Below, piece by piece: positions 4,856-34,792 of a DNA stretch of 34,792 nt. The stretch's first letter is position 1; the number at the start of each line of letters is the position of its first letter. Source of the stretch: a virus (Duplodnaviria > Caudoviricetes); the IMG/VR virus record IMGVR_UViG_3300025676_000811, positions 1 to 34,792 of that record. One strand, given 5' to 3'. The translations under genes and the position numbers were made by a program. The notes under the pieces are model-generated. The model did no database searches. It was not told the origin of the DNA and saw only the letters and a list, made by a program, of their open reading frames with translations.

Positions 4856-4856
4856 T

Positions 4857-9422: not shown

Positions 9423-9661
9423 TGAATTATCGAGAAGATTTAATTAAAGTTAGTGAGTTGTATTTTAATGCTCAAATTGAAAAACATAAAATCAATGTGG
9501 AAAATTTACTTGAAAACCAAGTAGGGGTAGCAGAACATCCAGATATAGTAGAGACTATTGAAAAGGAATTACAAGTTATTGCTAACTATGATGAAAAATT
9601 AAATGTATTACAAAAATACTTTAAAGGTAATACAGGATCTAAAGAGGTTTTAAATGGCTAA
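9422..9661 (+). CDS. Hypothetical helical protein
   Basis: 79 aa ORF coupled to both neighbours; helix-VGVAEHPD-helix pattern. Confidence 0.7.
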   Translation: MNYREDLIKVSELYFNAQIEKHKINVENLLENQVGVAEHPDIVETIEKELQVIANYDEKLNVLQKYFKGNTGSKEVLNG

Positions 9662-11012
9662 AAAGAAAATTCTATTAATGTCCGATGATTTACGGATGCA
9701 TAGTGGTGTCGCTACCGTGTCTAAAGATATAGTTATGGAAACACTAAATGAATATGATTGGGTTCAAATGGGTGGAGCAATCAAACATCCTGAGTCAGGT
9801 AAGGTTGTTGATATGTCCGAAGGTCTTGACGAGTTTGGGATTAAAGATGGGTATTTGAAAATTTATCCCGTTGATGGTTATGGAAATGAAGATTTATTAC
9901 GAGAAGTACTTGCAGTAGAGAAACCCGATGCTATTCTTCACTATACGGATCCACGTTTTTGGATTTGGTTCTATAATATGGAAGCTGAAATAAGACGTAA
10001 TATTCCAATTTTCTATTATAACATTTGGGATGATTTACCAGATCCACAATACAATACGAATTATTATAAAAGTAGTGATTTATTAATGGGAATATCTAAA
10101 CAAACTTATGGAATCAATAATCGTCTGTTGCCTGAATATGAGGATTGGCAAACTACATTTGTACCACATGGCATATCACCTCGTAGATTTAATAAGGTTC
10201 AAGATGATGATATAAAATTAATAGAATTTGATGAAAAGTTTGGAATATCGGATAAAAAGTATAAAATACTCTACAGCAATAGAAATATTCGTAGAAAACA
10301 ACCGAATGATGTATTATTGGCTTATAAATACTTTATGGATGGATTAACACAAGAACAACGAGATGAATGTGTATTGATATTTCATTGCCAACCCGTAGAT
10401 GATAACGGAACAGATTTACCAAGAGTTCATAAACATTTATGTCCTGATTATGATATTTGTTTCACTTATGATAAAGGTGGACCGATGGGTGATATGGGAA
10501 TGAATTTGCTTTTCAATACAAGTGATGTATATATTAATTTAGCATCCAATGAGGGGTTTGGGTTAGGTAGTGCTGAAGCCCTTACGGTAGGAACACCAAT
10601 TATCGTTAATGTAACGGGTGGACTACAAGACCAATGTGGATTCCGAGATGATGATGGGGAGTTATTAACTGCTGAAGATTATATTGAGCTCGGTACTAAC
10701 CATAGAGGTAAATACAAGACTCATGGTGAGTGGGTAAAGCCAGTTTATCCAGCTTCAATATCACTACAGGGTTCACCGATGACACCTTATATTTGGGATG
10801 ATAGATGTAATCCTGAAGATGCTGCTGTAAGTCTACGTGAATTTTATGATTTAGATAGGAAAGAAAGAAAACGACTTGGTAACCTGGGTGCTGAGTTCTG
10901 TAAAGAAAATCAAATGACAAGTCAAGAGATGGGTAAGAACTTTATCAATTCAATGAACGGTGCTTTTGATAATTGGAAACCTAAAAAACGTTACACGATG
11001 GGGAAAGTATGA
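9654..11012 (+). CDS. Glycosyltransferase, GT-B fold (GT4-like)
   Basis: KILLMSDD...SGVA N-terminus, NRNIRRKQ, and NEGFGLGSAEA (EX7E motif). Confidence 0.9.
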   Translation: MAKKKILLMSDDLRMHSGVATVSKDIVMETLNEYDWVQMGGAIKHPESGKVVDMSEGLDEFGIKDGYLKIYPVDGYGNEDLLREVLAVEKPDAILHYTDPRFWIWFYNMEAEIRRNIPIFYYNIWDDLPDPQYNTNYYKSSDLLMGISKQTYGINNRLLPEYEDWQTTFVPHGISPRRFNKVQDDDIKLIEFDEKFGISDKKYKILYSNRNIRRKQPNDVLLAYKYFMDGLTQEQRDECVLIFHCQPVDDNGTDLPRVHKHLCPDYDICFTYDKGGPMGDMGMNLLFNTSDVYINLASNEGFGLGSAEALTVGTPIIVNVTGGLQDQCGFRDDDGELLTAEDYIELGTNHRGKYKTHGEWVKPVYPASISLQGSPMTPYIWDDRCNPEDAAVSLREFYDLDRKERKRLGNLGAEFCKENQMTSQEMGKNFINSMNGAFDNWKPKKRYTMGKV

Positions 11013-12370
11013 AGAAATTTGTTTTAATGATTGCACCATTCAATACTCGTAGTGGTTATGGAGATCACGCAAGGTCAATATTTTATTCCATAATGGATAG
11101 AGATGATTTAGATATTAAATGTATTGATGTCAAATGGGGTAGTACTCCAAGAAATCATTTAAATCCTGAAGTTCCACGGCATAAAAAACTCTTGGGTACG
11201 TTCATTGATGGGAATAACATTAAAGAACAACCTGACGTATTGATTGATATTAGAATACCAAATGAATTCTCAAATGGGGCAAAATTCAATATTGGAATTA
11301 CGGCTGGAGTTGAAACTGATATAGTTTCTCCTGAGTTTTTGGCTGGTATGAATAAAATGGACTTGAATATAGTACCATCTAATTTTACAGCACAAACATT
11401 TCAAAAATGTAATTACGATAAGATGGAAGAGAAACCTGATGGTTCAAAACAAAAAGTAGCTCAAATTAAGTTAGAGAAACCAATTGAAGTATTGTTTGAG
11501 GGCGTTGATACATCCGTATATTATCCAATGGATAGGCATGAACTAAAATCAGAATTTACAGACGAATTAAATGACTTAATTAAAGAAGATATGGCTTATC
11601 TTCATGTAGGTCAATGGGGTAAAGGTAAGTATGGAGAAGATAGGAAAAATATACCATTGATGATTAAATGTTTCTTACAGGCATTTGCAAATAAACCCAA
11701 ATCACCTGCATTAGTATTGAAAACAAGTGGTGCTAATTTTTCTGTTTTGGATAAAGCTGAACTTGTTAAAAATATTAATCAAATTAAAGATGAATTTTCA
11801 CAAATAGATAACGTACCAAATATTTATTTAATACATGGTGATTTGACTATTGAAGAGATGTCTTTATTATATAATAACCCTAAGATAAAAGCCTTTTTAA
11901 CTTGTACACATGGAGAGGGTTATGGTAGACCAATGGCTGAGGCTACGTGTTGTGACTTACCGGTCATCGCTTCTAATTGGAGTGGTCATTTGGATTTCCT
12001 AAGTGATTCAGAATCATTACTGATTAATGGTAGTTTAACTGAAGTTCCAGACTCTATGATATGGGAGCCAATTATTGTTAAACCATCAAAGTGGTTTAGT
12101 GTCAATGAAGCTGATGTAGTTAGAAAATTGAGAATGTTTTATAAAAAACAAGGATTAATAACCAAGAAGGCAAAACGATTAGGTAAGAAAAATAGACGAG
12201 AATTTTCATTAAAGGCTATGGCAAATAAATTTAATAAAACACTTGATAATGTTTTAACTCACATACCACAACCAGTTAGTTTGAAATTACCTAAGTTGAA
12301 AAAGATAGGTAATGACACACCAAGTCAACCAGCAAAGATAAAACTACCTAAATTAAAGAAGATAACGTGA
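11009..12370 (+). CDS. Glycosyltransferase, GT-B fold (GT4-like), with duplicated basic C-terminal motif
   Basis: TRSGYG, DRKN, GEGYGRPMAEA (EX7E motif); tail QPxxxKLPKLKKI present twice. Confidence 0.9.
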   Translation: MKKFVLMIAPFNTRSGYGDHARSIFYSIMDRDDLDIKCIDVKWGSTPRNHLNPEVPRHKKLLGTFIDGNNIKEQPDVLIDIRIPNEFSNGAKFNIGITAGVETDIVSPEFLAGMNKMDLNIVPSNFTAQTFQKCNYDKMEEKPDGSKQKVAQIKLEKPIEVLFEGVDTSVYYPMDRHELKSEFTDELNDLIKEDMAYLHVGQWGKGKYGEDRKNIPLMIKCFLQAFANKPKSPALVLKTSGANFSVLDKAELVKNINQIKDEFSQIDNVPNIYLIHGDLTIEEMSLLYNNPKIKAFLTCTHGEGYGRPMAEATCCDLPVIASNWSGHLDFLSDSESLLINGSLTEVPDSMIWEPIIVKPSKWFSVNEADVVRKLRMFYKKQGLITKKAKRLGKKNRREFSLKAMANKFNKTLDNVLTHIPQPVSLKLPKLKKIGNDTPSQPAKIKLPKLKKIT

Positions 12371-12771
12371 TGAATCCCATGACTTTGCGGGTAACTTGCC
12401 CCTGTTGTTTGTTAGATGATATTGATATTGATGATTCGTTAGTATTGCTTGGTGATGATGAACAGAATATGCAATGTTTACATTGTGGTTTTGCTTCAAA
12501 TAGAGCAATGAAATCGCATATTGATGATAATCCATTTCCACAAGAGTTTAAAGACGTGTGTAGGAATTTAAGTGATAGGTGGTGGGCACCATCAGTTTTT
12601 ACTACTGAAAATTACATGGTAGTTCCGTTGGTGGAAAAGAAAGTATTGAAGTGGAGATTATTTGCTCAAACTGATCCAGAAACCGAAGTCTTAGTTCCGC
12701 ATTTTAGTGATGCGTACAAAATGGTAGAAAAATTGGAGAAAACACTTGGCGACCAGATACAACAATCGTAA
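12367..12771 (+). CDS. Hypothetical protein with N-terminal zinc ribbon
   Basis: CPCC...CLHCGF. Confidence 0.6.
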   Translation: MMNPMTLRVTCPCCLLDDIDIDDSLVLLGDDEQNMQCLHCGFASNRAMKSHIDDNPFPQEFKDVCRNLSDRWWAPSVFTTENYMVVPLVEKKVLKWRLFAQTDPETEVLVPHFSDAYKMVEKLEKTLGDQIQQS

Positions 12772-13216
12772 GATAATTCTATCAGAACAAACATTACCTA
12801 TTGGTAAGATATTACCTGGTATGATTGTGACGTTTAATTATTCGGAATCAGGTGTTAAGGATCCAAGACCTGTTTTATTATTCTTACATCGTGATAAAGA
12901 AACTAACTTACTAGAGGGTTTGAATATTAATTATATTAATGCAAGTAAGGTGAAAAAACTATTTAAAGTTATTGATATGAAAAAAACTGAAGTGGATGAA
13001 AGGGAAAATCTAATATCATTAAAGGAAGAGTATTTTAGGATACAAATAGCTAACCCAAAGAAACGTTCTGCTATGACTACCAAAAGATTTTATTCAGATA
13101 TCGTTAGTGCTGATAATGTATTTAAACAAGCATATCGTAGTTACAAAACAACTAAGTTGACAGCACTAAAGGTTACGAATATTAAATTAAACATGGTTGG
13201 CATTAGTGAAGATTAG
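12746..13216 (+). CDS. Possible T4 gp2-like DNA end-protector family protein
   Basis: ILPGMIVTFNY...DPRPVLLFL...LEGLNINYI...YRSYK resembles the gp2 pattern PG..Y.F.Y/D..PL/GLNLHY/..Y as recalled; remote similarity only. Confidence 0.45.
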   Translation: MATRYNNRKIILSEQTLPIGKILPGMIVTFNYSESGVKDPRPVLLFLHRDKETNLLEGLNINYINASKVKKLFKVIDMKKTEVDERENLISLKEEYFRIQIANPKKRSAMTTKRFYSDIVSADNVFKQAYRSYKTTKLTALKVTNIKLNMVGISED

Positions 13217-13829
13217 TTATTCCATATTAACTCATAACGAAACGAATTCATTAGAGAAGTTACTAAAGTTCTTAATCAAGTGGAAACAACCTGAAGATGA
13301 GATTGTAATACTTGATGATTATTCTGATGATAAAAAAACAAAACAATTATTAGATTTCTATGTATCTGCACACGATATAGTATTTGAACAACGAAATCTA
13401 TTGGGTGATTTTGCTTCACAGAAGAATCATTTAAAAAGTATGTGTAGTGGAGATTATAGTTTTAACCTTGATGCTGATGAGATGATAAGTCTTTGGTTGA
13501 TAAAAAACATACATAGTATTGTTGAAGAGAACGAAATTGATTTAATTTACTTACCAAGAATAAATACAGTAGAGGGTTTAACTGAACAACATGCTAAATA
13601 TTGGCATTGGAATGTTAATGATGATGGTTGGGTTAATTTTCCTGATTGGCAAGGTCGAGTATTTCGCAATAGACCAAATATAAAATGGGAAAAACCAGTT
13701 CATGAGATGTTGATTGGGTTTCAAACATATTCACATTTACCTACGGAAAAACCTTTTTGTATATTACATCATAAGACGATTGAAAAACAAGAACAACAAA
13801 ATGAAAAATATGCTGGGATTATGAGATGA
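13206..13829 (+). CDS. Glycosyltransferase family 2
   Basis: KISYSILTHNE, ILDDYSDD, FASQKN, LDADE (DxD motif), VHE; GTG start at 13206 preferred. Confidence 0.88.
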   Translation: MKISYSILTHNETNSLEKLLKFLIKWKQPEDEIVILDDYSDDKKTKQLLDFYVSAHDIVFEQRNLLGDFASQKNHLKSMCSGDYSFNLDADEMISLWLIKNIHSIVEENEIDLIYLPRINTVEGLTEQHAKYWHWNVNDDGWVNFPDWQGRVFRNRPNIKWEKPVHEMLIGFQTYSHLPTEKPFCILHHKTIEKQEQQNEKYAGIMR

Positions 13830-14020
13830 AATATAAAAATAAAGATGGTATAGAGTTATCGTATGAAGGTCACGAAAATGATTCTAGTGTTCAATTAATA
13901 AAAGAAGTATTGCAAGAAGTTATTGTGTTGGGGGATAAAGAAATTTACACAAAATATCCAAGACAAGGTTGGATTAAGGTAAAAGAATTTATAAATGAGA
14001 ATTTTTCTTTAGATGATTAA
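13826..14020 (+). CDS. Small hypothetical protein
   Basis: 64 aa; ATGA overlap upstream and overlap with the downstream gene. Confidence 0.55.
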   Translation: MKYKNKDGIELSYEGHENDSSVQLIKEVLQEVIVLGDKEIYTKYPRQGWIKVKEFINENFSLDD

Positions 14021-15041
14021 AATAAAAATACAAAATCCAACGGTTGGTCGAAATGAACCTACGTTTAGGCCATTTGGTATTATACAAGATATTTTAAGAG
14101 ATTATAGTATTGAATTAACGGATTCTGATGATTTTGATTATCTATTTATTGGAATGCATGACTTTATTGATAAGAAAAAATCTCTTCAAGAAAGTATTGA
14201 TTATGGATTAGATAATTTATCTAAAATTACTGGTGATTATTTTCTATTCGAGGGTTCAGATTCGACTTCATTGATGGGGGGGTTTGAAGTATTTGAACAA
14301 AGTGATGCTACTTATCTATTCAAAAATCAAATGTTACCATCTCAAGATGCTTATAAAGTTCCCTATGCTCATAATAAATGGTTTTGGGGTAGCGGTAGTG
14401 ATTTAGATTTATCATATGATATTTCCGATGATATGTGGAAAAGAATAAAATTTACAGGTTGGAATGTCGGGCAACTTGTTCCAAATTATAGAAATTTTCA
14501 ACCAATAAAACAAGACAAAAGTATTGATGTCTGTGCTATATTCAGAGGTAATCATGATTATAATGAAGATCATAAATCACAGAATAGTCACCTTTATACT
14601 GAACATAGAGGGGGGTTATGGAAAGTTTTAGAACCCTTAAAATCTAAATATAATATGATATATGATAGATTACCATTTGAAGAATATATTAAAAATCTAA
14701 TGGATTCTAAAATATCATTTTCGCCATTTGGTATGGGCGAGATATGTTTCAGAGATTTTGAATGTATGCAGTATGGAACTATAATGATAAAACCTAATCA
14801 AGATTTAGTTAAAACTATACCAGATATATATGAACCAGGTAAAACATATATTGATGTAAAGTATGATTGGTCGGACTTAGAAGAAAAAATTGATTATATA
14901 TTATCAAATTTTGATGAATTAAATGTTGAGATAAATGAAAATATTAGAAAAAAGTTTATGGGCGGGTATGATTATCGTAAGCTTTGTTTGTATTGGTATG
15001 ATATTTTTAAAAATTTAAGTGGAGTAGAGCAGATATCATGA
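14013..15041 (+). CDS. Putative glycosyltransferase (GT-B-like C-terminal domain)
   Basis: YIKNLMDSKISFSPFGMGEICFRDFE...MIKP...DWSDLEEKI pattern seen in GT-B/exostosin-like domains. Confidence 0.65.
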   Translation: MIKIKIQNPTVGRNEPTFRPFGIIQDILRDYSIELTDSDDFDYLFIGMHDFIDKKKSLQESIDYGLDNLSKITGDYFLFEGSDSTSLMGGFEVFEQSDATYLFKNQMLPSQDAYKVPYAHNKWFWGSGSDLDLSYDISDDMWKRIKFTGWNVGQLVPNYRNFQPIKQDKSIDVCAIFRGNHDYNEDHKSQNSHLYTEHRGGLWKVLEPLKSKYNMIYDRLPFEEYIKNLMDSKISFSPFGMGEICFRDFECMQYGTIMIKPNQDLVKTIPDIYEPGKTYIDVKYDWSDLEEKIDYILSNFDELNVEINENIRKKFMGGYDYRKLCLYWYDIFKNLSGVEQIS

Positions 15042-15961
15042 AAATATTAGTTACAGGCGGAGCGGGTTTTGTTGGTTCACATTTAGTTAATAGATTTTAT
15101 AATAAAAATTACGAAGTAGTAGTATTTGATTCTTTGGGACATACATCTTGTATTGATAGATTGTGTTCTGTAAATATTCCTATAATTATAGAACGCTTAC
15201 AGACTAAAGAAGTGTGGGATAAATTAGATACTGATTTTGATTTGATTATAAATTCAGCTGCTGAAACACATGTTGATGAATCATTTGAAAGACCAGTTGA
15301 TTTTATAGATACAAACATATTAGGTTTACATTATCTTAGTAAATACTGCTCTGATACTAATACACCTTTAATACATTTAAGTACAGATGAGGTTATTGGA
15401 AATGGAGAGCCGTTATATGAAGATTCAATGACTTTACCTACTAATCCATACTCTGCAACTAAAGCTGGTGGTGAATCTATTTTACATGCTTATGGTTATT
15501 GTTATGGGTTAGATTGGAAAGTTGTTAGATTAAATAATACATATGGGACAATGCAATTTCCTGATAAATTAATACCTTATTTTATTAGTAAGTTACAAGA
15601 TAATAAAAAATTACCAATACATGGTTCTGGTAAACAAGTTAGATTTTTTTTAAACGTAGATGATTTTGTAGATGCCGTTGAAGTCGTTATGGATAAAGGT
15701 GTGAATAAAAATATTTACAATGTATCTACGGATGAATCCTATAATGTATTGGAAGTTACAAAAATGATTTGTGATAATATGGGAAAGGATTTTAATGATT
15801 GTGTTGAGTATGTGGATGATAGGTTATTTCAAGATCCAATTTATCTATCAAATAGTGATAAGTTACGTGATATTGGATGGATGCCAAAACGTTTTCTAAA
15901 AGAAACTATGCCAGAGTTAATAGATTGGTATACGACCAATGGGGATTTTTTTAATAAATGA
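15038..15961 (+). CDS. rmlB: dTDP-glucose 4,6-dehydratase (RmlB/RfbB-like)
   Basis: GGAGFVG, AAETHVD, STDEV, PYSATKA, NNTYG...QFPDKLIP. Confidence 0.85.
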   Translation: MKILVTGGAGFVGSHLVNRFYNKNYEVVVFDSLGHTSCIDRLCSVNIPIIIERLQTKEVWDKLDTDFDLIINSAAETHVDESFERPVDFIDTNILGLHYLSKYCSDTNTPLIHLSTDEVIGNGEPLYEDSMTLPTNPYSATKAGGESILHAYGYCYGLDWKVVRLNNTYGTMQFPDKLIPYFISKLQDNKKLPIHGSGKQVRFFLNVDDFVDAVEVVMDKGVNKNIYNVSTDESYNVLEVTKMICDNMGKDFNDCVEYVDDRLFQDPIYLSNSDKLRDIGWMPKRFLKETMPELIDWYTTNGDFFNK

Positions 15962-17814: not shown

Positions 17815-17825
17815 GAGAATATATT

Positions 17826-19129: not shown

Positions 19130-19132
19130 AAA

Positions 19133-21136: not shown

Positions 21137-21145
21137 GAGTTTAAT

Positions 21146-21199
21146 ATGAGACATTTACATTTGGAAAAAATAATTATTTTAATAAAGGGGTTTAAATAA
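21146..21199 (+). CDS. 17-aa mini-ORF (possible gene remnant or coupling peptide)
   Basis: SD AGGAG at 21135-21139; MRHLHLEKIIILIKGFK*; its stop directly abuts the in-frame ATG at 21200. Confidence 0.35.
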   Translation: MRHLHLEKIIILIKGFK

Positions 21200-23824: not shown

Positions 23825-23831
23825 TAATATT

Positions 23832-24762: not shown

Positions 24763-24783
24763 TATATTTATGTATATACAAAA
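24763..24783. promoter_or_regulatory. 21-bp element, copy 2
   Basis: Identical to 9193-9213; lies in a 56-nt intergenic gap; palindrome ends 16 nt before ATG 24797. Confidence 0.65.
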
Positions 24784-26340: not shown

Positions 26341-26342
26341 GA

Positions 26343-26957
26343 ATGGAAAAACAAGAAATATTAAAGGGAGCGATTGGGAAGTTAGATCCTGGTGGTAGAT
26401 CAACGACTTCAGTTAAATTTAAATCAGATTTAATTGATTACTTTATGGATAAAAATTTAAATTCAGTACTAGAATTGGGAACATGGGGAGGCCATACTAC
26501 AAGAATATTAAGTTATTTATTTAAAAAAGTTATAACAGTAGATATGCCCAATGAATTTGAACGTAGAATATTAGGATCAGGACAGGCAGCTGATATTAAT
26601 AAGGATAGAGATAATATAACGTATACACCATTAGATTTATATAGAGATAATTGGAATTTTGAAGAACAAGATGTAGTATTCATTGATGCAGATCATTGTA
26701 TGAACTCATGTATATCGGATATTGATAATTCATTAAAATTGGTATCTAATGGTGGTTACTTAGTTTTTGATGATTTTAGTAATCCTTCAGACGAATATGG
26801 TGTACGAAAATCGGTTAATCAATATATTGAAAGTGGAATTTTAGTCGCTGATAAGTTTATCGGAGAGGAAGATACTACAAGTTTTTTTACTCACACCGTG
26901 TCAGTTGATAAATTGAATGGGACTCCTGAGGGAGTTATTTGTAGGGTAGTTATATGA
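26343..26957 (+). CDS. SAM-dependent methyltransferase (Methyltransf_24-like)
   Basis: VLELGTWGG, VFIDADH, GGYLVFDDF...GV; start at GTG 26337 or ATG 26343. Confidence 0.85.
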   Translation: MEKQEILKGAIGKLDPGGRSTTSVKFKSDLIDYFMDKNLNSVLELGTWGGHTTRILSYLFKKVITVDMPNEFERRILGSGQAADINKDRDNITYTPLDLYRDNWNFEEQDVVFIDADHCMNSCISDIDNSLKLVSNGGYLVFDDFSNPSDEYGVRKSVNQYIESGILVADKFIGEEDTTSFFTHTVSVDKLNGTPEGVICRVVI

Positions 26958-27706
26958 AAAAACAGTTTATTATTTGTGGTTGGCATATGAATCAAGATAG
27001 TTTAATTGATGGCCTTAATGATATACAACAAAGAGATGATGTAGATGTATTTTGGTCATGTCACCGAGAACCAACAGATAAAATAAAAGAAAATTTTGAA
27101 CACAAAGAGTTTTTTAATGGTGCAGAAGAAATGGGTGCATATCAACAAGCTATATCTTATTTGAATTTAGAAGATGATACCATATTATTTTGTATGCATG
27201 ATGATATGATAATACATGATTGGGAATTTGTTGAAGAGTGTATTAAAAAATTAGATGAAGGATATGTTGTGGTGGGTAATGGATACAATCCAGGTCATTC
27301 ATCCAATCCATCAGAACCTGCATTTCCTGGTTGGGACCCATCACATATTATACCAGTAGGTATTACAGAAGAATTTGATAACAAACGAAGATTGGATTAT
27401 GTATATCCAAAAAATCAGCATTATTTTGAAGGGGAATTACCAATGCAACATGTGAGAGTAAGTTTTATGTGTGTTAGATATAGTGATATGTTAACTATAG
27501 GTGGATTTGAACCTAGAGATGAAGCATATGTGTCACCACTCGATGGTAATTATAGGGATAACGTTGGATTAGGATCTTTTGGTAATCTGTTTCCGATGTT
27601 AACTATGTACAAAATAAATAAGGTGTTTGGTTGGAAATCTATTACCTGGTTATCTAATTCTTTTAAGGGTTCAAAGTATATTACTGAATTGTTTAGAGGG
27701 GGTTAA
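26954..27706 (+). CDS. Putative glycosyltransferase (GT-A-like)
   Basis: GAYQQA...LFCMHDDMII, IGGFE; cluster context. Confidence 0.55.
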   Translation: MKKQFIICGWHMNQDSLIDGLNDIQQRDDVDVFWSCHREPTDKIKENFEHKEFFNGAEEMGAYQQAISYLNLEDDTILFCMHDDMIIHDWEFVEECIKKLDEGYVVVGNGYNPGHSSNPSEPAFPGWDPSHIIPVGITEEFDNKRRLDYVYPKNQHYFEGELPMQHVRVSFMCVRYSDMLTIGGFEPRDEAYVSPLDGNYRDNVGLGSFGNLFPMLTMYKINKVFGWKSITWLSNSFKGSKYITELFRGG

Positions 27707-27707
27707 G

Positions 27708-28754
27708 ATGAAATTAGAAAATAAATATATAATTGGAACACATATAATGTTCTATGAAATTGATATGGTTAAAGAACACGTGCAGAGTATTATTAATGCT
27801 ATTGAAACGGTGGATAATAAGAAAAATATTACAGTAGATTTATTCTATAATATTTCAGAATATTTTGAAAAGATAAACACAGAGGAAGTATCTAAAGATA
27901 AACTGATAGATAAGTTTAAGTCTTTAGTCACATCACTTGAAAATACTGGATGTAATGTTACATATAAAATATATGAAGATAATGATAAACCAATAACAAT
28001 GGTTGATTATAGACGAGATTTAAATTACTTTGGTTGTGTCGATAACGATTATGTAATATGGGGAGAGTCAGACGCTTTATTACCTAAAGAGGCTTTTAGT
28101 ACATTAGAAGTAGTTAAAGGTTATGGTAATGAGAATAATATACACAGATATGTAGTAACTTTTGCTCTAAGAAAAATGTGGGATGATTCTTGGAAATCAT
28201 TAGAACATAATGATTTTACAGATAAACAATATTATGAAACTGAGTTACCAGACGGTTCAAGAAATGAAAAGGCATTTACAGAACCACATAGTATTAGATA
28301 TACAATGTCAGTTGACGAGATGAATGATATAAATAGTAGAGCTGAAGAATTAGATTTAAGAATATTGAGACAACCACAATTTGATGGTTCTATTCTTGTA
28401 TTAAGTTCAGATTTGATAAAGAATGGTGTAAATGTACCTAGATGTATATTAGGGCATGCGGTTGATGATACTAGTGTGATGTGGAGTTGTTCTCAGATAA
28501 TGGGTGATGCTTATGTACAGTTTGTAGTGAAGAACATTTTAAAAGTACATAATAGAAATCATCCAATAAAAAGAAAGTATTGTTTACAGATGGAAGGTGA
28601 TAGGGTTTGTACTCAAGAAAAAGGTCCTAATCAGAGGGGTGATTGGTATACCAATTTAAAACAACTTGCTAATCAAAACTTATCTGTATTTGGTAAGTCT
28701 CAAAATAGATTTAATACATATAAAGATTTTACAAAAATAATGGAGAGTGAATAA
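27708..28754 (+). CDS. Hypothetical protein, probably GT-A glycosyltransferase-like
   Basis: DYVIWGESDALLP (ExD), DGSILVLS, VDD, KVHN; ATG 27708 follows a GAGGGG SD (the track start at 27627 overlaps the upstream gene). Confidence 0.5.
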   Translation: MKLENKYIIGTHIMFYEIDMVKEHVQSIINAIETVDNKKNITVDLFYNISEYFEKINTEEVSKDKLIDKFKSLVTSLENTGCNVTYKIYEDNDKPITMVDYRRDLNYFGCVDNDYVIWGESDALLPKEAFSTLEVVKGYGNENNIHRYVVTFALRKMWDDSWKSLEHNDFTDKQYYETELPDGSRNEKAFTEPHSIRYTMSVDEMNDINSRAEELDLRILRQPQFDGSILVLSSDLIKNGVNVPRCILGHAVDDTSVMWSCSQIMGDAYVQFVVKNILKVHNRNHPIKRKYCLQMEGDRVCTQEKGPNQRGDWYTNLKQLANQNLSVFGKSQNRFNTYKDFTKIMESE

Positions 28755-29714
28755 ATGAAAAGAGCATTAATAACAGGTATTAACGGAATGGATGGTAGTC
28801 ATCTTGCTGATTTCTTATTAGAAAAGGGATACGAAGTGTATGGTATGGAAAGAAGAACCTCATATCCAAACAGATTAAATACAAAACATTTAGAGGGTAA
28901 AATAACTTTTATTAATGGTGATTTATCAGACCAAAATTCAATAAGTAGATGTATAAAAGAATGTGATCCTGATGAAATATATCATTTGGCTGCTCAATCA
29001 TTTGTTGGAGAAAGTTGGAATACACCTGAACAAACAGGTGATGTAACAGGTCTTGGTGCCCTAAGAATGTTGGAAGCTATCAGAGAGTATGGTAAAGAGA
29101 TTAAATTTTATCAAGCATCAACATCTGAAATGTTTGGTAGAATGGTAGAGAATCCAGCAAAAGAATCAACACCTTTCTATCCACGCTCACCTTATGGTGT
29201 TGCTAAACTTTATGGTCATTGGATAACAAAGAACTACAGAGAATCATATGATATGTTTAATGTTAGTGGTATTCTTTTTAATCATGAATCTGAACGTAGA
29301 GGTATTGAATTTGTAACTCGTAAGATTACTGATGGTGTTGCTAAAATAAAACTTGGTTTATCGGATTACATAACACTAGGTAATTTAGATTCAAAAAGAG
29401 ATTGGGGTTACGCTCCTGATTATGTAGAATGTATGTGGTTGATGATGCAACAAGATAGTCCTGATGATTATGTTATTGCTACCGGCAAAGCTTATAGTAT
29501 AAGGGAATTTTTAGATGTTGCTTTTAGTTGTATTGACATTCAAGATTGGAGTAAGTATGTTAAACATGATTTGAGATATATGAGACCTGCTGAAGTGGAT
29601 GTCTTATGTGGTGATTCTAGTAAAGCAAGAGAAAAATTAGGATGGACACCGAGAACATCATTTGACCAAATGGTTTCAAAAATGGTTGCAAACGATATAA
29701 AATTATTATCATAA
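28755..29714 (+). CDS. gmd: GDP-mannose 4,6-dehydratase
   Basis: ITGINGMDGSHLA, LAAQSFV, YQASTSEMFG, FYPRSPYGVAK, LFNHES, FVTRKIT, RDWG, RPAEVD. Confidence 0.95.
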   Translation: MKRALITGINGMDGSHLADFLLEKGYEVYGMERRTSYPNRLNTKHLEGKITFINGDLSDQNSISRCIKECDPDEIYHLAAQSFVGESWNTPEQTGDVTGLGALRMLEAIREYGKEIKFYQASTSEMFGRMVENPAKESTPFYPRSPYGVAKLYGHWITKNYRESYDMFNVSGILFNHESERRGIEFVTRKITDGVAKIKLGLSDYITLGNLDSKRDWGYAPDYVECMWLMMQQDSPDDYVIATGKAYSIREFLDVAFSCIDIQDWSKYVKHDLRYMRPAEVDVLCGDSSKAREKLGWTPRTSFDQMVSKMVANDIKLLS

Positions 29715-30382
29715 TGGGATATATATTACCAGAAATATACCAATCAATTTGTCAGGAACATGATGTAACTTTACCTAAAGTATTTGTTGAAACGGGTACT
29801 TTTATGGGAGGAGTTCCACATAGAATGTTAGAGACAAATGGTAACTTCAATCCTTTTGATAAGTTATATACAATAGAACTTGGTGAAGAAATATGCAAGG
29901 TAGCATCTAAAAGATATAAGTTGTTTATGGAACACACCGGTGATTTATCAGAGTTTGATTTTCATACGAATAAAAAGGATGAATCCTTTAGTGGTAGTGA
30001 ATACTACTTTGATAATAAGTTAAAGTTAATATGTGGAGACTCCCCAGAGATGTTAAAGAGTCTGTTATCGGAATTAGATGAACCTGTTTGTTTTTGGTTA
30101 GATGCGCATGCTGGGGCATCAAAGTATAGCAGAGGTGATGATGACGTTCCATTGATAAAAGAATTAAGTACAATAGCTAAACATCATGTTAAAAATCATA
30201 TTATAGGAATAGATGATGCCCATTTGTTTGGACAAAAACAGTATGATTCTAATGGTAATATGGTATGTGATTATAGTGAAATTACATTAGACAAGGTAAA
30301 GAGCTTGCTATTAGATATAAATCCAAATTATGACATAGGTATATATAAACCATATAACATGGAAATGGTACTGGCAATATGA
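29714..30382 (+). CDS. Methyltransferase-fold protein
   Basis: FVETGT, YTIEL, CGDS, FWLDAH, IGIDD. Confidence 0.65.
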   Translation: MGYILPEIYQSICQEHDVTLPKVFVETGTFMGGVPHRMLETNGNFNPFDKLYTIELGEEICKVASKRYKLFMEHTGDLSEFDFHTNKKDESFSGSEYYFDNKLKLICGDSPEMLKSLLSELDEPVCFWLDAHAGASKYSRGDDDVPLIKELSTIAKHHVKNHIIGIDDAHLFGQKQYDSNGNMVCDYSEITLDKVKSLLLDINPNYDIGIYKPYNMEMVLAI

Positions 30383-31308
30383 GAATATTAGTATTTCATC
30401 AACCCTGGCCAATGGGTAACTATAAACTAAATGTAGCAGTTGCAGATAAACTCCAATCCGAAGGGCATGATGTATATGCATTAGAACAATTAAATGGTAA
30501 TCTTGCTACACGAGAATATGTACAGCAAATTCTTGATATGGATTTTGATTTAGTGTATTATGAGATGTTAGATAAAGAAACATTTAAGATAATAGAACAA
30601 CTAAAATGTCAACGAATACTACTACACGCCTCTGGTGGAGTGTTGATAGATTATGATGCAATTCTTGATTATAAAGGAAAATGGTATGATAAAATATTCA
30701 CAGGTTCGAAAATCATGTTTGAAAAATTTAAAAAAAATGGAATAGTTTCGGAACATTATCAATATTATCATTCTGCTATCAAAGAAGAAGAAAAACAATT
30801 TGATGAAAAATATGATCATAACTGTGTATTTTTAGGAATGGGATTTAATCGATTAACAGATTCTCAATATAATTTGGAACGAGAAATATTCTTTAAGGAA
30901 CAACCATTTGAATTTGATGTGTATGGTAATGGGTGGGGGGAATTTACCCATTGGCGAGGATTATTACCACCATTGGATATTGGGAGATTATATTCATCTG
31001 CAAAATGTGCTATTGGAATTATAGCAAAAGGACAACGAGAACATGGTATGATAAATAATCGATATACGGAAATGTCGGTTTGTGAATGCCCTATCATAAC
31101 TTATAATTATGACACGATTGATTGGTATGGTGCAGAAAAATATTTGAATTTCGTTTCATCAGCTGATGAGTTAAATGATATGGTAATTGCTATAAATAAT
31201 AACCACGAAGAATACAAAGTTAAATCAAAAGAACTAAATAAATTTATGATTCAGAAAGATAAAGAGTTTTTTGGAAAATTAAATATATTGATAAATAAGG
31301 AGTATTAA
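30379..31308 (+). CDS. Glycosyltransferase, CgeB/Glyco_trans_1_2-like
   Basis: CVFLG, DVYGNGW, LYSSAK, INNRYTE...PIIT. Confidence 0.7.
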   Translation: MRILVFHQPWPMGNYKLNVAVADKLQSEGHDVYALEQLNGNLATREYVQQILDMDFDLVYYEMLDKETFKIIEQLKCQRILLHASGGVLIDYDAILDYKGKWYDKIFTGSKIMFEKFKKNGIVSEHYQYYHSAIKEEEKQFDEKYDHNCVFLGMGFNRLTDSQYNLEREIFFKEQPFEFDVYGNGWGEFTHWRGLLPPLDIGRLYSSAKCAIGIIAKGQREHGMINNRYTEMSVCECPIITYNYDTIDWYGAEKYLNFVSSADELNDMVIAINNNHEEYKVKSKELNKFMIQKDKEFFGKLNILINKEY

Positions 31309-32222
31309 TGAAAATATTAATAACAGGTGGTACAGGAACAGTTGGTAAAGCTCTTATCAAATTAAATGACAATGAGTACATCAATGTCAGTAGAAACGAA
31401 GAGAAGATAGCTGAACTAAAACGAGAACATCCAGAGGTAAAGTCTTATGTGGGTAATATAGAGGACAAAGGACTATTGTTACGAGTATTTAAGGACGTTA
31501 AACCCGATGTAGTAGTTCATGCAGCTGCTATGAAACATATTGATTTGATGGAGACTAATCCTATTGCTGGCTGTAACATAAATGTGATGGGTAGTTTGAA
31601 TGTGGTTGAGGCTAGTATAATAAATGACGTTCCAATCACAGTTGGTATCAGTACAGATAAAGCTTGTTTGGCTGAGAGTGTTTATGGGGCTTCAAAGTAT
31701 CTGATGGAACGAGTGTTTATGAATAGTAATAATGACAATGCTAATAGATTTGCATTAACTAGATTTGCTAACGTAGCTCACAGTAATGGTTCAGTATTAC
31801 CATTTTGGTTAAAGTTAAAATCAGAGGGTAAACCACTAAAGCTTACGGATCCTGATATGAACAGATTGATATTCACACAAGAAGATGCGGCACACTTAAT
31901 CAACAGAACTATCAAATGGACACGGGATCATGGTGGTGGGTTTGTTAACTCATATAAGATGAAATGTATTAATATGTTAGATTTAGCTATGTTTATAGCT
32001 AATGAAGAAGTACCTATTGATATAGTAGGAAAAAGACCAGGCGAAAAGACTAATGAAGATTTGATTAGTGAAAGGGAAATAAATAGAACCTATATACATG
32101 GTGATGATATTCATATTCGTATGGAAGAGAATGAAGGCGCTGATAGATTAACAGAACCATACAATTCAAAGTCGGCTGAGATGATGACAGAAGAAGAAAT
32201 AAAGGAATTGGTGTGGGGTTAA
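31308..32222 (+). CDS. UDP-GlcNAc 4,6-dehydratase-like (Polysacc_synt_2; PseB/FnlA/CapD family)
   Basis: GGTGTVG, HAAAMKH, ISTDKA, YGASK, RFANVAHSNGSVLP, RPGEK. Confidence 0.88.
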   Translation: MKILITGGTGTVGKALIKLNDNEYINVSRNEEKIAELKREHPEVKSYVGNIEDKGLLLRVFKDVKPDVVVHAAAMKHIDLMETNPIAGCNINVMGSLNVVEASIINDVPITVGISTDKACLAESVYGASKYLMERVFMNSNNDNANRFALTRFANVAHSNGSVLPFWLKLKSEGKPLKLTDPDMNRLIFTQEDAAHLINRTIKWTRDHGGGFVNSYKMKCINMLDLAMFIANEEVPIDIVGKRPGEKTNEDLISEREINRTYIHGDDIHIRMEENEGADRLTEPYNSKSAEMMTEEEIKELVWG

Positions 32223-33193
32223 AAGATTATAAGATAGTCTGGTTCACCGAAGGTGGTTGGCAAGGCAAGGTTGGATTAGATAATCCTAATATGAGGAATG
32301 ATGTATCTACGATGTATACAGTAGGAGCTGAACATTACCCTATCTTTCAGATACCACAAGTACTACAGCACTTTGGTGAGAATCACTTTGATTTTGGTAT
32401 TGTAACTCTACCCAAAACAAATACAGAAGAACTAATGAAGTTTGATATGATGGGCGACTTAAAGAAGTTATGTAAGAAAACTATTTCAATGCAAGAAGGA
32501 CCACATTGGTTATTTCAAGACTATACTATGGAACAACAGATTTGGTGGTATAATGCTCTTACAGAGTTTGATATGTTATTTGCTCATAATAATAAGGATG
32601 TGAAATACTATAAAGGTTTGACGAATAAACCTGTTCATAAGATGCCAACACTAATGTTAGCTGAAAGGTTGGGTATTGAATCGAATAGAGGAAAAAATGA
32701 CTCAGTTATAATCGGTGGTAATATGGTTAGATGGTATGGTGGATTTGATTCTTATATAGTAGCTCAAGAGTTTGGAGTACCAATATCAGCCCCATCAATG
32801 GGTAGAAAGATTGACAGAGAAGATGAGATGGATATAAATCACTTTCCTTATATGACTTGGGTTGAGTGGATAAATAACTTAGGTAAATTTAAGTATGGGG
32901 TTCATCTGATGCCAACACATGCGGCTGGTACATTTACATTAAATTGTGCTTTTCACGGCATACCTTGTATTGGGTATAAGGGATTGGATACACAAGAAGA
33001 GTTACATCCGTTGTTATCAGTAGATGATGGGGATATGGAAACGGCTATGAAATTGGCTCGTAGGTTAAAGGATGGTCAATTTTATGAAGAGTGTAGTATA
33101 ATGTGTAGAGAGAATTATGAGAGTTCATTATATATAGAAGAAAGGTGTACTGAATATTTAAGTTTAATATTTGAGGATTTAATAAATGAGTAA
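32213..33193 (+). CDS. Putative GT-B glycosyltransferase
   Basis: C-terminal GVHLMPTHAAGTFTLNCAFHGIPCIG resembles a GT-B donor-binding segment; cluster context. Confidence 0.5.
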   Translation: MGLKDYKIVWFTEGGWQGKVGLDNPNMRNDVSTMYTVGAEHYPIFQIPQVLQHFGENHFDFGIVTLPKTNTEELMKFDMMGDLKKLCKKTISMQEGPHWLFQDYTMEQQIWWYNALTEFDMLFAHNNKDVKYYKGLTNKPVHKMPTLMLAERLGIESNRGKNDSVIIGGNMVRWYGGFDSYIVAQEFGVPISAPSMGRKIDREDEMDINHFPYMTWVEWINNLGKFKYGVHLMPTHAAGTFTLNCAFHGIPCIGYKGLDTQEELHPLLSVDDGDMETAMKLARRLKDGQFYEECSIMCRENYESSLYIEERCTEYLSLIFEDLINE

Positions 33194-33977
33194 AATTGCA
33201 ATAATAGGTTATGGTTATGTTGGAAAGGCTATGAAAAAGTTCTTTGAAAACCATTACGAATTAGTTATCTACGATCCACCAGCAGGATATAAAACAACTA
33301 AAGCTGAAGTTAATGAATGCGATGTTACATTTGTTTGTGTACCAACACCGAAAAGTGAAGATGGTAGTTGTGATATTTCTATAGTAGAAGAATCTGTTAG
33401 ATGGGTTGATACAGAATTGATTATTATAAAATCTACGGTTGAGGTTGGAACTACTAAAAGATTAAGCAAAAAGTTTAATAAAGATTTAGTTTTTTCACCG
33501 GAGTATATAGGTGAATCTACATATTGGACTCCATATAAATTTCATCAAAATATGAAAGAAACACCGTTTTATACTTTTGGCGGTAATAAAGAAACTTGTA
33601 GTAAAGTTATTGATTTATTTTTACCAGTTACAGGACCCTGTAAAAGATATATTACAACAGATAGTACGTCTGCGGAAATGGCAAAATATATGGAGAACGC
33701 TTTTTATGCTACAAAAATAGCTTTTTGTAATGAGTTATATGATATATGTAAAGCGTCTGGTGTTGATTGGAATGAAGTTAGAGAACTGTGGCTGGCCGAC
33801 CCAAGAATACATCCAATGCATACAGCTGTATTTAAAGAGAAAAGGGGATTTGGTGGTAAGTGTTTACCTAAAGATACGTTAGCGTTAAGTAAGATAGCAG
33901 AAAAGGGAGGGACACAATCAGATTTACTGAAAGGTGTTCTGAGTTCTAATAATAAAGTTAGGGAAGATAATGGATAA
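33186..33977 (+). CDS. ugd: UDP-glucose/GDP-mannose dehydrogenase family protein, short form lacking the C-terminal domain
   Basis: IIGYGYVG, FVCVPTP, IIKSTV, FSPE, AEMAKYMEN, DPRI, GFGGKCLPKD (catalytic Cys); only 263 aa. Confidence 0.85.
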   Translation: MSKIAIIGYGYVGKAMKKFFENHYELVIYDPPAGYKTTKAEVNECDVTFVCVPTPKSEDGSCDISIVEESVRWVDTELIIIKSTVEVGTTKRLSKKFNKDLVFSPEYIGESTYWTPYKFHQNMKETPFYTFGGNKETCSKVIDLFLPVTGPCKRYITTDSTSAEMAKYMENAFYATKIAFCNELYDICKASGVDWNEVRELWLADPRIHPMHTAVFKEKRGFGGKCLPKDTLALSKIAEKGGTQSDLLKGVLSSNNKVREDNG

Positions 33978-34792
33978 AGTTATAAGTTTCATCCAACCCA
34001 GTAGGAACAACCTACGTTATTTAAAGTGGTCTTACAATAGCATCAGAAAGAACTTAGGTTACAGGCACGAGATATGTTGGGCTGACGATTTCTCTGATGA
34101 CGGAACTTGGGAATGGATGCAAGAGATTGCTGAAAAAGATAAAAATGTACGGATAATAAGAAATAGTGGACCAGATAGGTTAGGGCACACTATACTGTAT
34201 GATAGGTTAGTGGAGTTAGCTACAAGTGATATCATAATGATTTATCACGCTGATATGTACGCCTGCCCTAATTTAGATACAGAGATACTTAAACATTTAG
34301 AACGAGGTAAAGTAGTTAGTGCAACCCGCATTGAACCACCACTACATCCGGATGGACCTGAGAAGATATTAAAAGATTTTGGGATTGAACCAGAAGAGTT
34401 TGATGAACACGGATTATTGAATTTTATATCAGACTTCGTTGGAACAAGAGAAGATGAAACAACTGAGGGTATATTTGCTCCGTGGGCTATGTATAAGGAT
34501 GACTTCTTAGCCATCGGTGGACATGATCCTTTATATGCTCCACAATCAAAGGAAGATTCGGATATATTCAACAGGTTTGTATTGGCTGGATATGATTTGA
34601 TTCAGACTTGGAAAGGATTAGTCTATCATATGACTTGTAGAGGCAGTAGATTTAAGGATGGTGCTCTTCGAAATCCAGCGGGACAAGTCTTTATGAAAGG
34701 TAGGGAGAGTAGTGAGTGGTTAGCACAAAACCTCCGTAGCACCCGTAATTTCATCCGTAAATGGGGACATATGGTTAAACATGATGAACTGA
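33970..34792 (+). CDS. Glycosyltransferase family 2 (3'-partial; missing from the ORF track)
   Basis: ATG 33970: MDKVISFIQPSRNN...WADDFSDDGT...IYHADM...IGGHD...EDSDIFNR...VYH; the frame stays open to the window end. Confidence 0.88.
   Translation, partial: MDKVISFIQPSRNNLRYLKWSYNSIRKNLGYRHEICWADDFSDDGTWEWMQEIAEKDKNVRIIRNSGPDRLGHTILYDRLVELATSDIIMIYHADMYACPNLDTEILKHLERGKVVSATRIEPPLHPDGPEKILKDFGIEPEEFDEHGLLNFISDFVGTREDETTEGIFAPWAMYKDDFLAIGGHDPLYAPQSKEDSDIFNRFVLAGYDLIQTWKGLVYHMTCRGSRFKDGALRNPAGQVFMKGRESSEWLAQNLRSTRNFIRKWGHMVKHDEL

Follow-up and report, generated by a model that had tools for sequence, protein, structure and literature searches.

Mycobacteriophages with decorated particles are reportedly siphoviruses that carry a few glycosyltransferases (GTs) and use host sugars. 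Phage GTs glycosylate their virion proteins, with glycans on capsid and tail tube C-termini, according to PMC12619734 and PMC12582341, which relay Freeman et al. 2023. The locus described here, known from genes alone, differs in encoding 11–14 GTs and its own rare-sugar pathways, in having a swappable interior, and in its internal candidate acceptor motif. In giant viruses, clade-specific glycogene clusters of Megavirinae, a 38-kb cluster in CroV, and chlorovirus GTs including B736L/A546L have been described, and these viruses likewise cluster nucleotide-sugar pathways and GTs for bacterial-type sugars in a lineage-variable manner; their hosts are eukaryotes and their glycans have been shown chemically (PMC9614988), whereas our locus forms an operon of overlapping genes and belongs to a tailed phage. 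Pelagimyophages and the cyanomyophages S-SCSM2R, S-SCSM1, and P-SSM2, likewise T4-like and marine, also have a variable region that encodes numerous GTs and nucleotide-sugar enzymes, but this GT8-rich region lies between vrlC and gp14 within the structural genes and is interpreted as modifying host surface or DNA (PMC7029224, PMC12801897), while the island presented here follows the replisome, sits between fixed GT anchors, and belongs to another lineage. Four core GT groups described for moraphages (PMC12619734) appear comparable by description.

Among cultured phages, Flavobacterium phage immuto (Immutovirus) displays the same order of PD-(D/E)XK nuclease, GT4a, GT4b, GT2a, variable genes, and GT2z, within 10.8 kb, and homologues of GT4a, GT4b, and GT2a are kept in Microcystis phage Mel-JY01 and Rhodothermus phage RM378; compared to Immutovirus, the present island is more than twice as long, includes a nonulosonic-acid cassette, and likely comes from a phage of Marinimicrobia. 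Literature on these cultured relatives yielded no functional study of the frame GTs. Flagellin glycosylation islands and the GtfA/GtfB enzymes of serine-rich repeat proteins are cytoplasmic, export-free, and carrier-free, and between them involve nonulosonic acids and a GT-B heterodimer acting on Ser/Thr. By description, our island may resemble them in all four respects (no export, no carrier, nonulosonic acids, and a predicted GT-B heterodimer), although GtfB is non-catalytic whereas GT4a and GT4b both keep the EX7E signature. Separate publications already describe GT-rich islands of marine phages and the glycosylation of phage virions, and a search mostly without subscription papers found no literature on this island, motif, or sequon.

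Here, we describe a complete phage glycan island in which six conserved GTs frame swappable rare-sugar pathways. We consider it fairly probable that this island makes a strain-specific, cytoplasmic O-linked glycan, late, on exterior virion proteins (neck, sheath, baseplate, and fibres), probably at Ser/Thr-Gly-Ser.

Origin and gene content of the island

The window, i.e., the 34,792-nucleotide stretch analysed (IMG/VR record IMGVR_UViG_3300025676_000811), is tiled at 99–100% by many independent viral contigs, and genes for gp23, gp20, sheath, and baseplate are present in its syntenic relatives, which rules out the bacterial chromosome or chimera that an earlier sequence-only reading had raised as a danger. 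It belongs to a large marine T4-type myovirus, kin to RM378 and Immutovirus. The T4-type replisome includes a PolB (phrog_262, E 7e-196) and matches to phrog_168 and phrog_225, with Mel-JY01 providing the closest cultured PolB (45%). The gp23 capsid, gp20 portal, and contractile tail genes lie in syntenic relatives and are absent from the contig itself; the PolB values of these relatives are 54% (G006) and 81% (G001, which has a sheath), and the G006 capsid matches those of Mel-JY01 (51%), immuto (49%), and RM378 (35%). We take a TonB-dependent receptor as a clue to the likely host, Marinimicrobia. The features are as follows, single numbers denoting the individual genes of a block:

2..1450, + strand: TonB-dependent receptor, C-terminal half of 912 aa (context)
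1503..6410, + strand: T4-type PolB, clamp-position ORF, and clamp-loader subunits (context of the island)
9654..11012, + strand: GT4a, core GT-B glycosyltransferase, left anchor (Pfam PF00534; EX7E E300/E308)
11009..12370, + strand: GT4b, core GT-B, predicted partner of GT4a (EX7E E303/E311)
12367..13216, + strand: two short ORFs with no annotation related to glycans, encoding a Cys-pair protein and a weakly T4 gp2-like protein
13197..13829, + strand: GT2a, core GT-A (PF00535; homologue in 47/47 other islands)
14013..15041, + strand: candidate GT, semi-conserved (17/47 other islands; weak RXYLT1_C match, E 5.5e-4, below cut-off)
15038..15961, + strand: RmlB-like NDP-sugar 4,6-dehydratase/epimerase (Pfam/NCBIfam)
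15958..19807, + strand: four-gene nonulosonic-acid cassette (Pfam/NCBIfam, except 19133), with a NeuB-SAF-TIM-barrel fusion (15958), a SAM methyltransferase (17826), a NeuA/PseF-like CMP-transferase (18494), and a candidate nonulosonate transferase (19133, from context only)
20021..24740, + strand: two DegT aminotransferases (20021 and 22679; Pfam/NCBIfam), a sulfotransferase-like ORF (21200; weak match), and two GT2-like ORFs (21817 and 23808; paralogues of each other, E 1e-22)
24797..26340, + strand: tandem core GT-A genes, cluster 0, GT8-like lead (46/48 islands)
26337..31308, + strand: methyltransferase (26337), two GT-A-like candidates (26954 and 27708, motif only), GDP-mannose 4,6-dehydratase (28755; TIGR01472, 420 bits against a cut-off of 415), methyltransferase-like ORF (29714, motif only), and CgeB-type GT (30379)
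31308..33977, + strand: PseB/FnlA-like UDP-GlcNAc 4,6-dehydratase (31308), core GT-B of cluster 5 (32213; 38/48 islands), and UDP-sugar dehydrogenase-like ORF without C-terminal domain (33186)
33970..34792 in the window, + strand: GT2z, right anchor (in the identical contig L161 it is 407 aa long and ends at window-equivalent 35193)

All 30 ORFs between 9654 and 34792 are on the + strand, and 26 of the 29 junctions overlap or are at most 11 nt apart. The identical contig L161 places the end of the island 401 bases beyond the window (9654 to about 35193); hence the island announced earlier as "at least 25 kb" exists but is not open-ended, being complete at ~25.5 kb and 30 genes, most of which encode predicted soluble enzymes that make or attach sugars. 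All eight nucleotide-sugar enzymes named in the sequence-only reading were recovered by Pfam/NCBIfam (RmlB-like, NeuB, NeuA, two DegT, Gmd, PseB/FnlA-like, and UGDH-like). Its count of about 14 GT candidates also stands, with uneven backing: seven have a Pfam match (two of them weak), four are linked indirectly through paralogy or ESM Atlas, and three (19133, 26954, and 27708), for which family and PDB searches returned nothing, are proposed from motif and context. Two of its three methyltransferases are assigned by family and the third (29714) by motif, and its sulfotransferase-like gene does have a match, albeit a weak one (E 0.0012, below cut-off). Homologues of 19133 in islands G013 and G040 come after NeuB and CMP-transferase genes. 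For cluster 0, ESM Atlas look-alikes are NDP-sugar transferases and PF01501 is found on 16–58% of members (two clusters); PDB-sequence profile searches were uninformative for cluster 0, cluster 5, 19133, 27708, and 14013. Four small ORFs within the island have no glycan annotation, among them the gp2-like one (pairwise E 6e-4 over 26 residues). Judging from this gene content, the putative glycan would be methylated and acidic.

A fixed frame, an exchanged interior, and the question of export

We compared 48 homologous islands (7.4–35.5 kb), which are related and were chosen for having both anchors; G057 and Mel-JY01, in which one anchor is missing, as well as G053 (without GT4a) and G002, were left out. 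Six GTs form a fixed frame: GT4b occurs in 48 islands, GT4a, GT2z, and cluster 0 in 46 each, GT2a in 44, and cluster 5 in 38. The rare-sugar pathway set inside this frame is swapped, with 45 distinct non-core gene repertoires and a median Jaccard index of 0.05. In G010, for instance, the left flank is 97–99% identical to the window, yet window positions 14.0–27.7 kb are replaced. A Pfam scan covered 139 representative proteins of 328 island clusters, and genes of other islands include GT9, Kdo-type, phosphonate, GT11, and GT29 genes. All three cultured relatives have recognizable GT4a, GT4b, and GT2a; GT2z is well conserved only in Immutovirus. Across 50,697 phage records, GT4a was found in seven, with recorded hosts spanning three phyla, and these are the same seven that top a search with the G006 capsid type.

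Such a repertoire resembles that of O-antigen and capsule loci, and the island could instead serve during infection to alter O-antigen, capsule, or LPS core on the host surface through host lipid carriers and exporters, blocking superinfection or grazing, as proposed for GT-rich islands of SAR11 and cyanobacterial myophages (PMC7029224, PMC12801897). The outer-membrane receptor encoded by the phage fits this explanation, and many GTs of O-antigen synthesis are soluble as well, the E. coli GTs WbbK and WbbI having no transmembrane (TM) segment in our test. That test detected 9, 6, and 2 segments in E. coli Wzx, Wzy, and Wzz, respectively, and no protein with at least two segments among 1416 ORFs of the 48 islands, the window island included; for the latter, the sequence-only reading had noticed the same. 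Its observation that no Wzx/Wzy/Wzz, ABC exporter, or initiating phosphoglycosyltransferase is encoded was also borne out: the initiating phosphoglycosyltransferase family PF02397 was found in 0/50 partial records (control 9/14) and the flippase family PF01943 in 0/50 (control 13/14), so that neither a cognate priming enzyme nor a flippase was found in these 50 records. An exporter just beyond the window is ruled out by the L161 continuation, which holds no flippase, polymerase, or ABC gene, and by two complete relatives, G061 and G062, without any Wzx/Wzy-like protein; their ORFs with at least four TM segments (one and two, respectively; GRAVY at most 0.23) all lie outside the island. Serotype conversion of the Gtr/Oac type would involve polytopic GtrA/GtrC or Oac, and no polytopic ORF occurs in the 48 islands, the likeness to GtrB being limited to weak PHROG matches of GT2 domains. 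Wzx and Wzy are specific for their repeat unit. With an interior swapped between near-identical phages, a single host exporter would need to take unrelated repeat units, and the core GT4 is kept across hosts of different phyla. Host-surface remodelling hence appears unlikely.

Possible timing of expression and candidate acceptors

Three further features concern transcription:

1503 and 4090: sigma70-like sites in the replisome region
9194..9213, + strand: candidate late promoter with ATATTTAT core, 460 nt upstream of GT4a
24764..24783, + strand: second candidate late promoter, same 20-mer, in a 56-nt intergenic gap

Of 24 valid genomes (G023, whose GT4a starts at the contig end, was left out), 21 have the late-type motif within 700 nt of GT4a and none has a sigma70-like site there. 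The motif also occurs within 90 nt upstream of neck (4/4), sheath (5/5), and tube (5/5) genes, compared to 1/5 for PolB and 0/5 for each of clamp, loader, helicase, UvsX, and RNase H. Counting against a late role, the motif is also found upstream of gp32 (3/5) and RNR (2/4), and the portal, gp21, MCP, and hub genes lack it within 90 nt. No sigma factor was identified for it: a phmmer search of the relatives at hand with the RM378 sigma factor retrieved no homologue. None of the 13 RM378 ORFs checked has TATTTAT upstream. RNA-library contigs cover pieces of the island, as contigs that carry no level, strand, or timing. The tight coupling to the replisome claimed initially thus holds for position and strand but, given the motif distribution, probably not for transcription, and the link looks positional only. 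Late-type expression would moreover be a poor fit with superinfection exclusion as a host-surface function.

The adjoining replisome would also suit a phage DNA hypermodified with a complex glycan against nucleases, comparable to T-even glucosylation or TET/JBP-linked systems, as would a weak match of GT4a to GT4-conflict (E 9e-6, below cut-off) and a separate TAGT and GT locus among DNA methylases in the close relative G001. However, this DNA-type locus sits 13 kb outside the G001 island, and at the corresponding position of G005, the contig of the window virus, a scan of 12 ORFs gave no TAGT match. The ThyA/dCMP-hydroxymethylase family PF00303 was found in 0/26 partial records (7–79% complete; control 10/14), and the TET/JBP dioxygenase PF12851 in 0/26, where the controls were silent too. 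Published LC-UV-MS/MS of DNA from Immutovirus, which has the same frame, recovered dA, dC, dT, and fdPreQ1, although a digestion-resistant or rare adduct could escape such an analysis. Glycosylated DNA therefore seems very unlikely.

Structural comparisons were used to characterize the core GTs. The GT4a model (pLDDT 87) has chlorovirus B736L as its best PDB match, both by profile and by fold, while GT4b matches B736L weakly; the sugar that B736L prefers is missing from the capsid glycans of NY-2A. GT4a and GT4b are predicted to form a heterodimer, with a complex score of 0.84 against 0.00 for the best of three controls, at a mark reached by 116/157 solved pairs and 2/215 mismatched pairs; at least 95% of contacts are shared between runs, and partner pLDDT is at least 89. 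A basic C-terminal motif of GT4b (LKLPKLKK-type, in one or two copies), seen in no other protein of the scanned contigs, was trimmed off for this prediction. For GT2z, ppGalNAc-T1 (Z 19.3, rmsd 4.4, 251 aligned) is about as close a fold match as heparosan synthase (Z 19.0, rmsd 3.3, 225 aligned); Foldseek placed the polysaccharide synthases first. These modelled folds do not name the acceptor.

The structural genes of the window virus being outside its contig, acceptor motifs were sought in relatives. Ser/Thr-Gly-Ser had an observed/expected ratio of 2.0–5.9 in structural sets of 6/6 island-bearing phages, with the G006 count inflated by fibre repeats and several G006, G061, and G007 proteins called structural by synteny alone, and of 0.3–0.5 in enzyme sets of 3/3 phages; the two control phages gave 0.17 (T4) and 1.1 (P-SSM7). 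The tripeptide is present in 42 of 47 neck proteins (mean 3.2 vs 0.40 expected), at shifting positions. Enrichment is weak in G062 (6 vs 3.0), and RM378 has the GT4 pair, yet its sheath contains one tripeptide against 0.59 expected. Ser-Gly-Ser enrichment could also reflect a turn preference of the lineage. Two other candidates were rejected: N-x-S/T was not enriched (0.83–1.18 vs 1.13–1.20 in controls), and G-x-T-G was inconsistent (0–1.8; P-SSM7 1.9). Capsid Ser/Thr content (0.163 vs 0.129 for the proteome, higher in variable columns) had no outgroup control and was not used as evidence.

An acceptor outside the virion, such as host or phage proteins in the cell (e.g., for the silencing of defence or receptors), or a glycan, free or lipid-linked, that leaves the cell at lysis, would agree with the close structural neighbours of GT4a (MshA, PimB', and BshA), which act on small molecules or lipids, and with GT2z being as similar to polysaccharide synthases as to protein GTs. 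It would nonetheless leave unexplained why the tripeptide is enriched in exterior structural proteins and depleted in enzymes, and a pathway of 10–14 transferases with serotype-like swapping would better suit an exposed surface, making this possibility quite unlikely.

Proposed virion glycosylation and its implications

We thus favour virion proteins as the acceptor, based on the upstream motif, the tripeptide enrichment, the co-occurrence of GT4a with one capsid type, and the nucleosides published for Immutovirus DNA, among which no sugar-bearing one is reported. Virus-encoded soluble GTs and dedicated nucleotide-sugar pathways, both present here, are features expected of viral virion glycosylation. 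The self-contained cytoplasmic system of a large phage postulated in the sequence-only reading is supported, none of three refutation tests having counted against it, with the same four lines of evidence indirectly backing its virion target. In the proposed mechanism, ATATTTAT would act as a late promoter driving the island apart from the replisome, and variable genes would draw on host pools of UDP-GlcNAc, GDP-Man, and UDP-hexose to make amino-deoxy sugars, a uronic acid, and a CMP-nonulosonic acid. Core GTs, including the predicted GT4a-GT4b heterodimer, would then start the chain on the protein and assemble a conserved inner core without lipid carrier, which variable GTs, methyltransferases, and the putative sulfotransferase would extend and cap. 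The resulting coat may influence how the phage adsorbs, how stable it is, or how grazers and hosts recognize it, and this would explain the serotype-like swapping.

More tentatively, and short of our being persuaded, a very widespread aquatic T4-type lineage may possess its own protein O-glycosylation code, in which a GT4 heterodimer, expressed late and working without carrier, and its partner GTs recognize a Ser/Thr-Gly-Ser sequon in neck, sheath, baseplate, and fibre proteins, and attach an O-antigen-like complex, fast-swapped glycan including a sialic-acid-like sugar, resulting in glycan serotypes. The cultured Immutovirus has the same frame, upstream motif, and tripeptide enrichment and therefore allows a direct test. 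In marine phages, clusters of GTs are usually annotated, without test, as auxiliary genes modifying host surface or DNA. If the virion is indeed glycosylated, an abundant phage lineage would combine giant-virus-like autonomous glycosylation with serotype-like turnover, which would bear on adsorption, particle decay, grazing, and the annotation of such genes, and would provide soluble protein-O-glycosylating enzymes with a three-residue tag along with many rare-sugar pathways.

Extent and variability of the glycan island

The window is the entire virus record (34.8 kb), with every long ORF on the + strand. From 9654 to the window end, 30 ORFs follow one another with 26 of 29 junctions overlapping or at most 11 nt apart, at a GC content of 0.315 (0.329 and 0.336 on the left and right sides). 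One other contig, L161, is 100% identical to window 23970–34792 and runs on past the window end. Its last glycosyltransferase (GT; 407 aa) stops at window-equivalent 35193, and is followed by small ORFs and then ordinary phage genes, instead of the export genes against which the sequence-only reading had cautioned. The island is a real feature and, given where L161 places its last GT, complete at ~25.5 kb, so that the earlier "at least 25 kb" holds for size but not for open-endedness. Family scans bore out all 8 nucleotide-sugar enzymes previously proposed, 2 of the 3 methyltransferases (the third has motif or context only) and, among ~14 GT candidates, 7 directly (2 weakly) and 4 more indirectly, the other 3 having motif or context only; the sulfotransferase-like gene gave a weak match. 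The island was also said to encode no polytopic protein, and indeed none has two predicted transmembrane (TM) segments, the same procedure finding 9, 6, and 2 in Wzx, Wzy, and Wzz of E. coli.

We rebuilt 48 islands between two anchor GTs, namely the window's own, 46 from IMG/VR contigs, and that of Flavobacterium phage immuto (Immutovirus), three of them cut within an anchor. The IMG/VR contigs were chosen by presence of an anchor (GT4a in 45/46 tested), and the core GTs occurred as follows.

Core GTs in the window and number of the 48 islands that contain them
9654..11012, + strand, GT4a (left anchor), 46
11009..12370, + strand, GT4b, 48
13197..13829, + strand, GT2a, 44
24797..26340, + strand, cluster 0, 46
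32213, + strand, cluster 5, 38
from 33970, + strand, GT2z (right anchor), 46

Island size ranged from 7.4 to 35.5 kb (median 26.5 kb), the shortest islands being this frame plus little else. The 1416 island ORFs formed 328 clusters (156 singletons), and non-core content amounted to 45 distinct repertoires with a median Jaccard of 0.05. In one relative (G010), the left flank is 97–99% identical and window 14.0–27.7 kb is replaced by ~6.5 kb of different genes. Scanning 139 representative proteins against Pfam revealed amino-, C-methyl-, and branched-sugar, heptose, phosphonate, Kdo-type, and nonulosonate pathways, along with formyl, carbamoyl, acyl, methyl, and sulfo tailoring. Phosphonate pathway parts (PEP mutase fused to cytidylyltransferase, TPP enzyme, Fe-ADH) and B12 radical-SAM enzymes were seen in relatives' islands (L293:12117-13418, L309:1068-1523, L221:201-956).

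None of the 1416 ORFs had two or more TM segments, PF02397 and PF01943 were each found in 0/50 records (positive controls 9/14 and 13/14, respectively), and two complete relatives (G061, G062) carry both anchors and no Wzx/Wzy-like protein. Alongside these results, we consider it unlikely that the island serves to remodel the host surface.

Phage relatives, likely host and neighboring genes

Window 1–21009 is tiled by other viral contigs at 99–100%. Syntenic relatives encode gp23, gp20, gp21, baseplate, and tube (G006, PolB 54%) or sheath (G001, PolB 81%), and CheckV estimates for relatives imply a genome of about 180–210 kb. Among 50,697 phage records, GT4a matched 7 (Microcystis phage Mel-JY01, four Immutovirus records, LR756508.1, and Rhodothermus phage RM378), and the same 7 topped the capsid search.

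The phage TonB-dependent receptor matched 80 genome loci, including 53 titled Marinimicrobia or Neomarinimicrobiota, 3 Fidelibacterota (which we take to be a synonym), 17 without taxon name, and 7 from other taxa, 2 of which have phage replication neighbors. The host is thus likely Marinimicrobia. Two MAG contigs labeled Methanobacteriota and Flavobacteriales (L315, L317), with the receptor beside phage replication genes, look like misbinned phage DNA. This full-length, 912 aa receptor lies between ribonucleotide reductase (RNR) and PolB (window 2-1450; L018:7210-9948), is kept in G001, G003, and G006–G008, and has its closest copies in Marinimicrobia; contigs covering it were deepest in 4/4 RNA runs compared there, although depth cannot rank genes.

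The probable PolB start codon is a non-canonical ATT (window 1560-1562) after a Shine-Dalgarno-like stretch. The aligned codon at 52 loci is ATG (21), TTG (18), ATT (12), or ATA (1), and the upstream TTG at 1503 sits within a sigma70-like site. Between replisome and island are a DUF1599 (nucleotide-modification-associated) gene (6760-7146) and a ClpP-like protease (7330-7926), and a gene inside the GT frame (12821-13216) weakly resembles the T4 gp2 DNA end protector (pairwise E 6e-4). Outside its glycan island, G001 encodes a DNA methylase, PLP enzyme, GT-B, and TAGT-family GT (L153:13325-17847), a candidate DNA modification system.

Core enzymes and upstream motif

The GT4a model has a GT-B fold (pLDDT 87), with chlorovirus B736L as best PDB match by profile (E 1e-14) and fold (E 9e-15, TM 0.65), and MshA and PimB' close behind. 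PMC9614988 gives the B736L acceptor as not known, and the likeness provides none for GT4a. Modeling predicts a GT4a–GT4b complex in which GT4a C-terminal residues 446–452 contact GT4b 271–280 (complex score 0.84 vs 0.00 for the best control; contact agreement ≥95%, partner pLDDT ≥89), the score mark being reached by 116/157 solved and 2/215 mismatched pairs. The GT4b C-terminus (window 12275-12370) carries one or two copies of a basic LKLPKLKK-type motif in 48/48 islands, found in none of the other proteins scanned, as a possible docking signal. The GT2z model (pLDDT 84) tied between ppGalNAc-T1 and heparosan synthase.

The nonulosonate route, with NeuB and NeuA, is incomplete as annotated: family scans detected no NeuC, acetyltransferase, or PseG-type hydrolase, hence PseB-like and DegT enzymes, or else the host, may supply the precursor. 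NeuB (15958-17814) carries a fused xylose-isomerase-like TIM barrel, without full-length homologue in the 47 other islands. A UDP-sugar dehydrogenase-like protein (33186-33977) lacks the C-terminal domain, a conserved short form since 19/19 cluster members have 261–304 aa.

In an unbiased scan of intergenic DNA from five relatives, ATATTTAT was the commonest among enriched 8-mers (43/122 sites intergenic). It occurred within 90 nt of neck (4/4), sheath (5/5), and tube (5/5) genes, vs 1/5 for PolB and 0/5 for clamp, loader, helicase, UvsX, and RNase H. Exceptions to this pattern were gp32 (3/5), RNR (2/4), and portal, gp21, MCP, and hub (0). We infer that ATATTTAT is a late promoter; its core reads as the T4 late consensus TATAAATA in reverse complement. 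A phmmer search of the relatives analyzed, with the RM378 sigma factor as query, found no cognate factor. The window has five sense-strand copies, those upstream of GT4a (9194) and of the cluster-0 pair (24764) having a 20-mer in common, and sigma70-like sites at PolB and clamp. The motif lies within 700 nt of GT4a in 21/24 valid genomes, including Immutovirus and Mel-JY01, vs 0/24 for the sigma70-like pattern. Within islands, 36/144 sites fall in upstream windows vs 12.0 expected, with a p-value (2e-9) overstated because the genomes compared are related. Island pieces, NeuB included, are matched at 95–100% (mostly at least 99%) by contigs of five marine RNA runs, which places them in RNA libraries but says nothing about timing. 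A second enriched motif, around CGTAGCTT, had 19/29 sites intergenic (G001, G006–G009).

Candidate acceptor and interpretation

SGS was among the six most enriched tripeptides of structural sets in 5/6 island-bearing phages. Observed/expected ratios of Ser/Thr-Gly-Ser ([ST]GS) in the six structural sets were 3.2, 3.3, 2.0, 2.6, 5.9, and 3.5, compared with 0.3–0.5 for enzyme sets, 0.17 for T4, and 1.1 for P-SSM7. The tripeptide occurred in 42/47 neck proteins (mean 3.2 vs 0.40 expected), scattered over ~10 positions, on contigs whose island status is known for few (2/2 complete ones have it), and 0 times in gp13 of T4 and P-SSM7. Sheaths had 3–6 in 5/5, vs 0 and 1 in T4 and P-SSM7, and capsids a mean of 1.9 vs 0.62. 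Mel-JY01 had 7 vs 2.0, and the RM378 signal was weak. Next to this enrichment in structural proteins, an acceptor outside the virion appears quite unlikely. Modification of DNA is more improbable still: a preprint reports that Immutovirus DNA yielded dA, dC, dT, and fdPreQ1 (bioRxiv 10.1101/2023.04.13.536721), and PF00303 was found in 0/26 partial records.

Earlier work describes GT-rich variable regions in pelagimyophages (PMC7029224) and cyanophage S-SCSM2R (PMC12801897), moraphages with four core groups of GTs (PMC12619734), and, as cited in PMC12619734 and PMC12582341, mycobacteriophage virion glycosylation. The string "glycos" has 0 occurrences in a Far-T4 paper (PMC4360716) and in a 2026 giant-virus/jumbo-phage review (PMC13359090), and literature searches of main texts found no published account of this anchored island, upstream motif, or sequon. 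Taken together, we propose that the island probably serves to O-glycosylate exterior virion proteins late in infection, in the cytoplasm and without a lipid carrier, where a conserved core would be capped by a swappable outer glycan.
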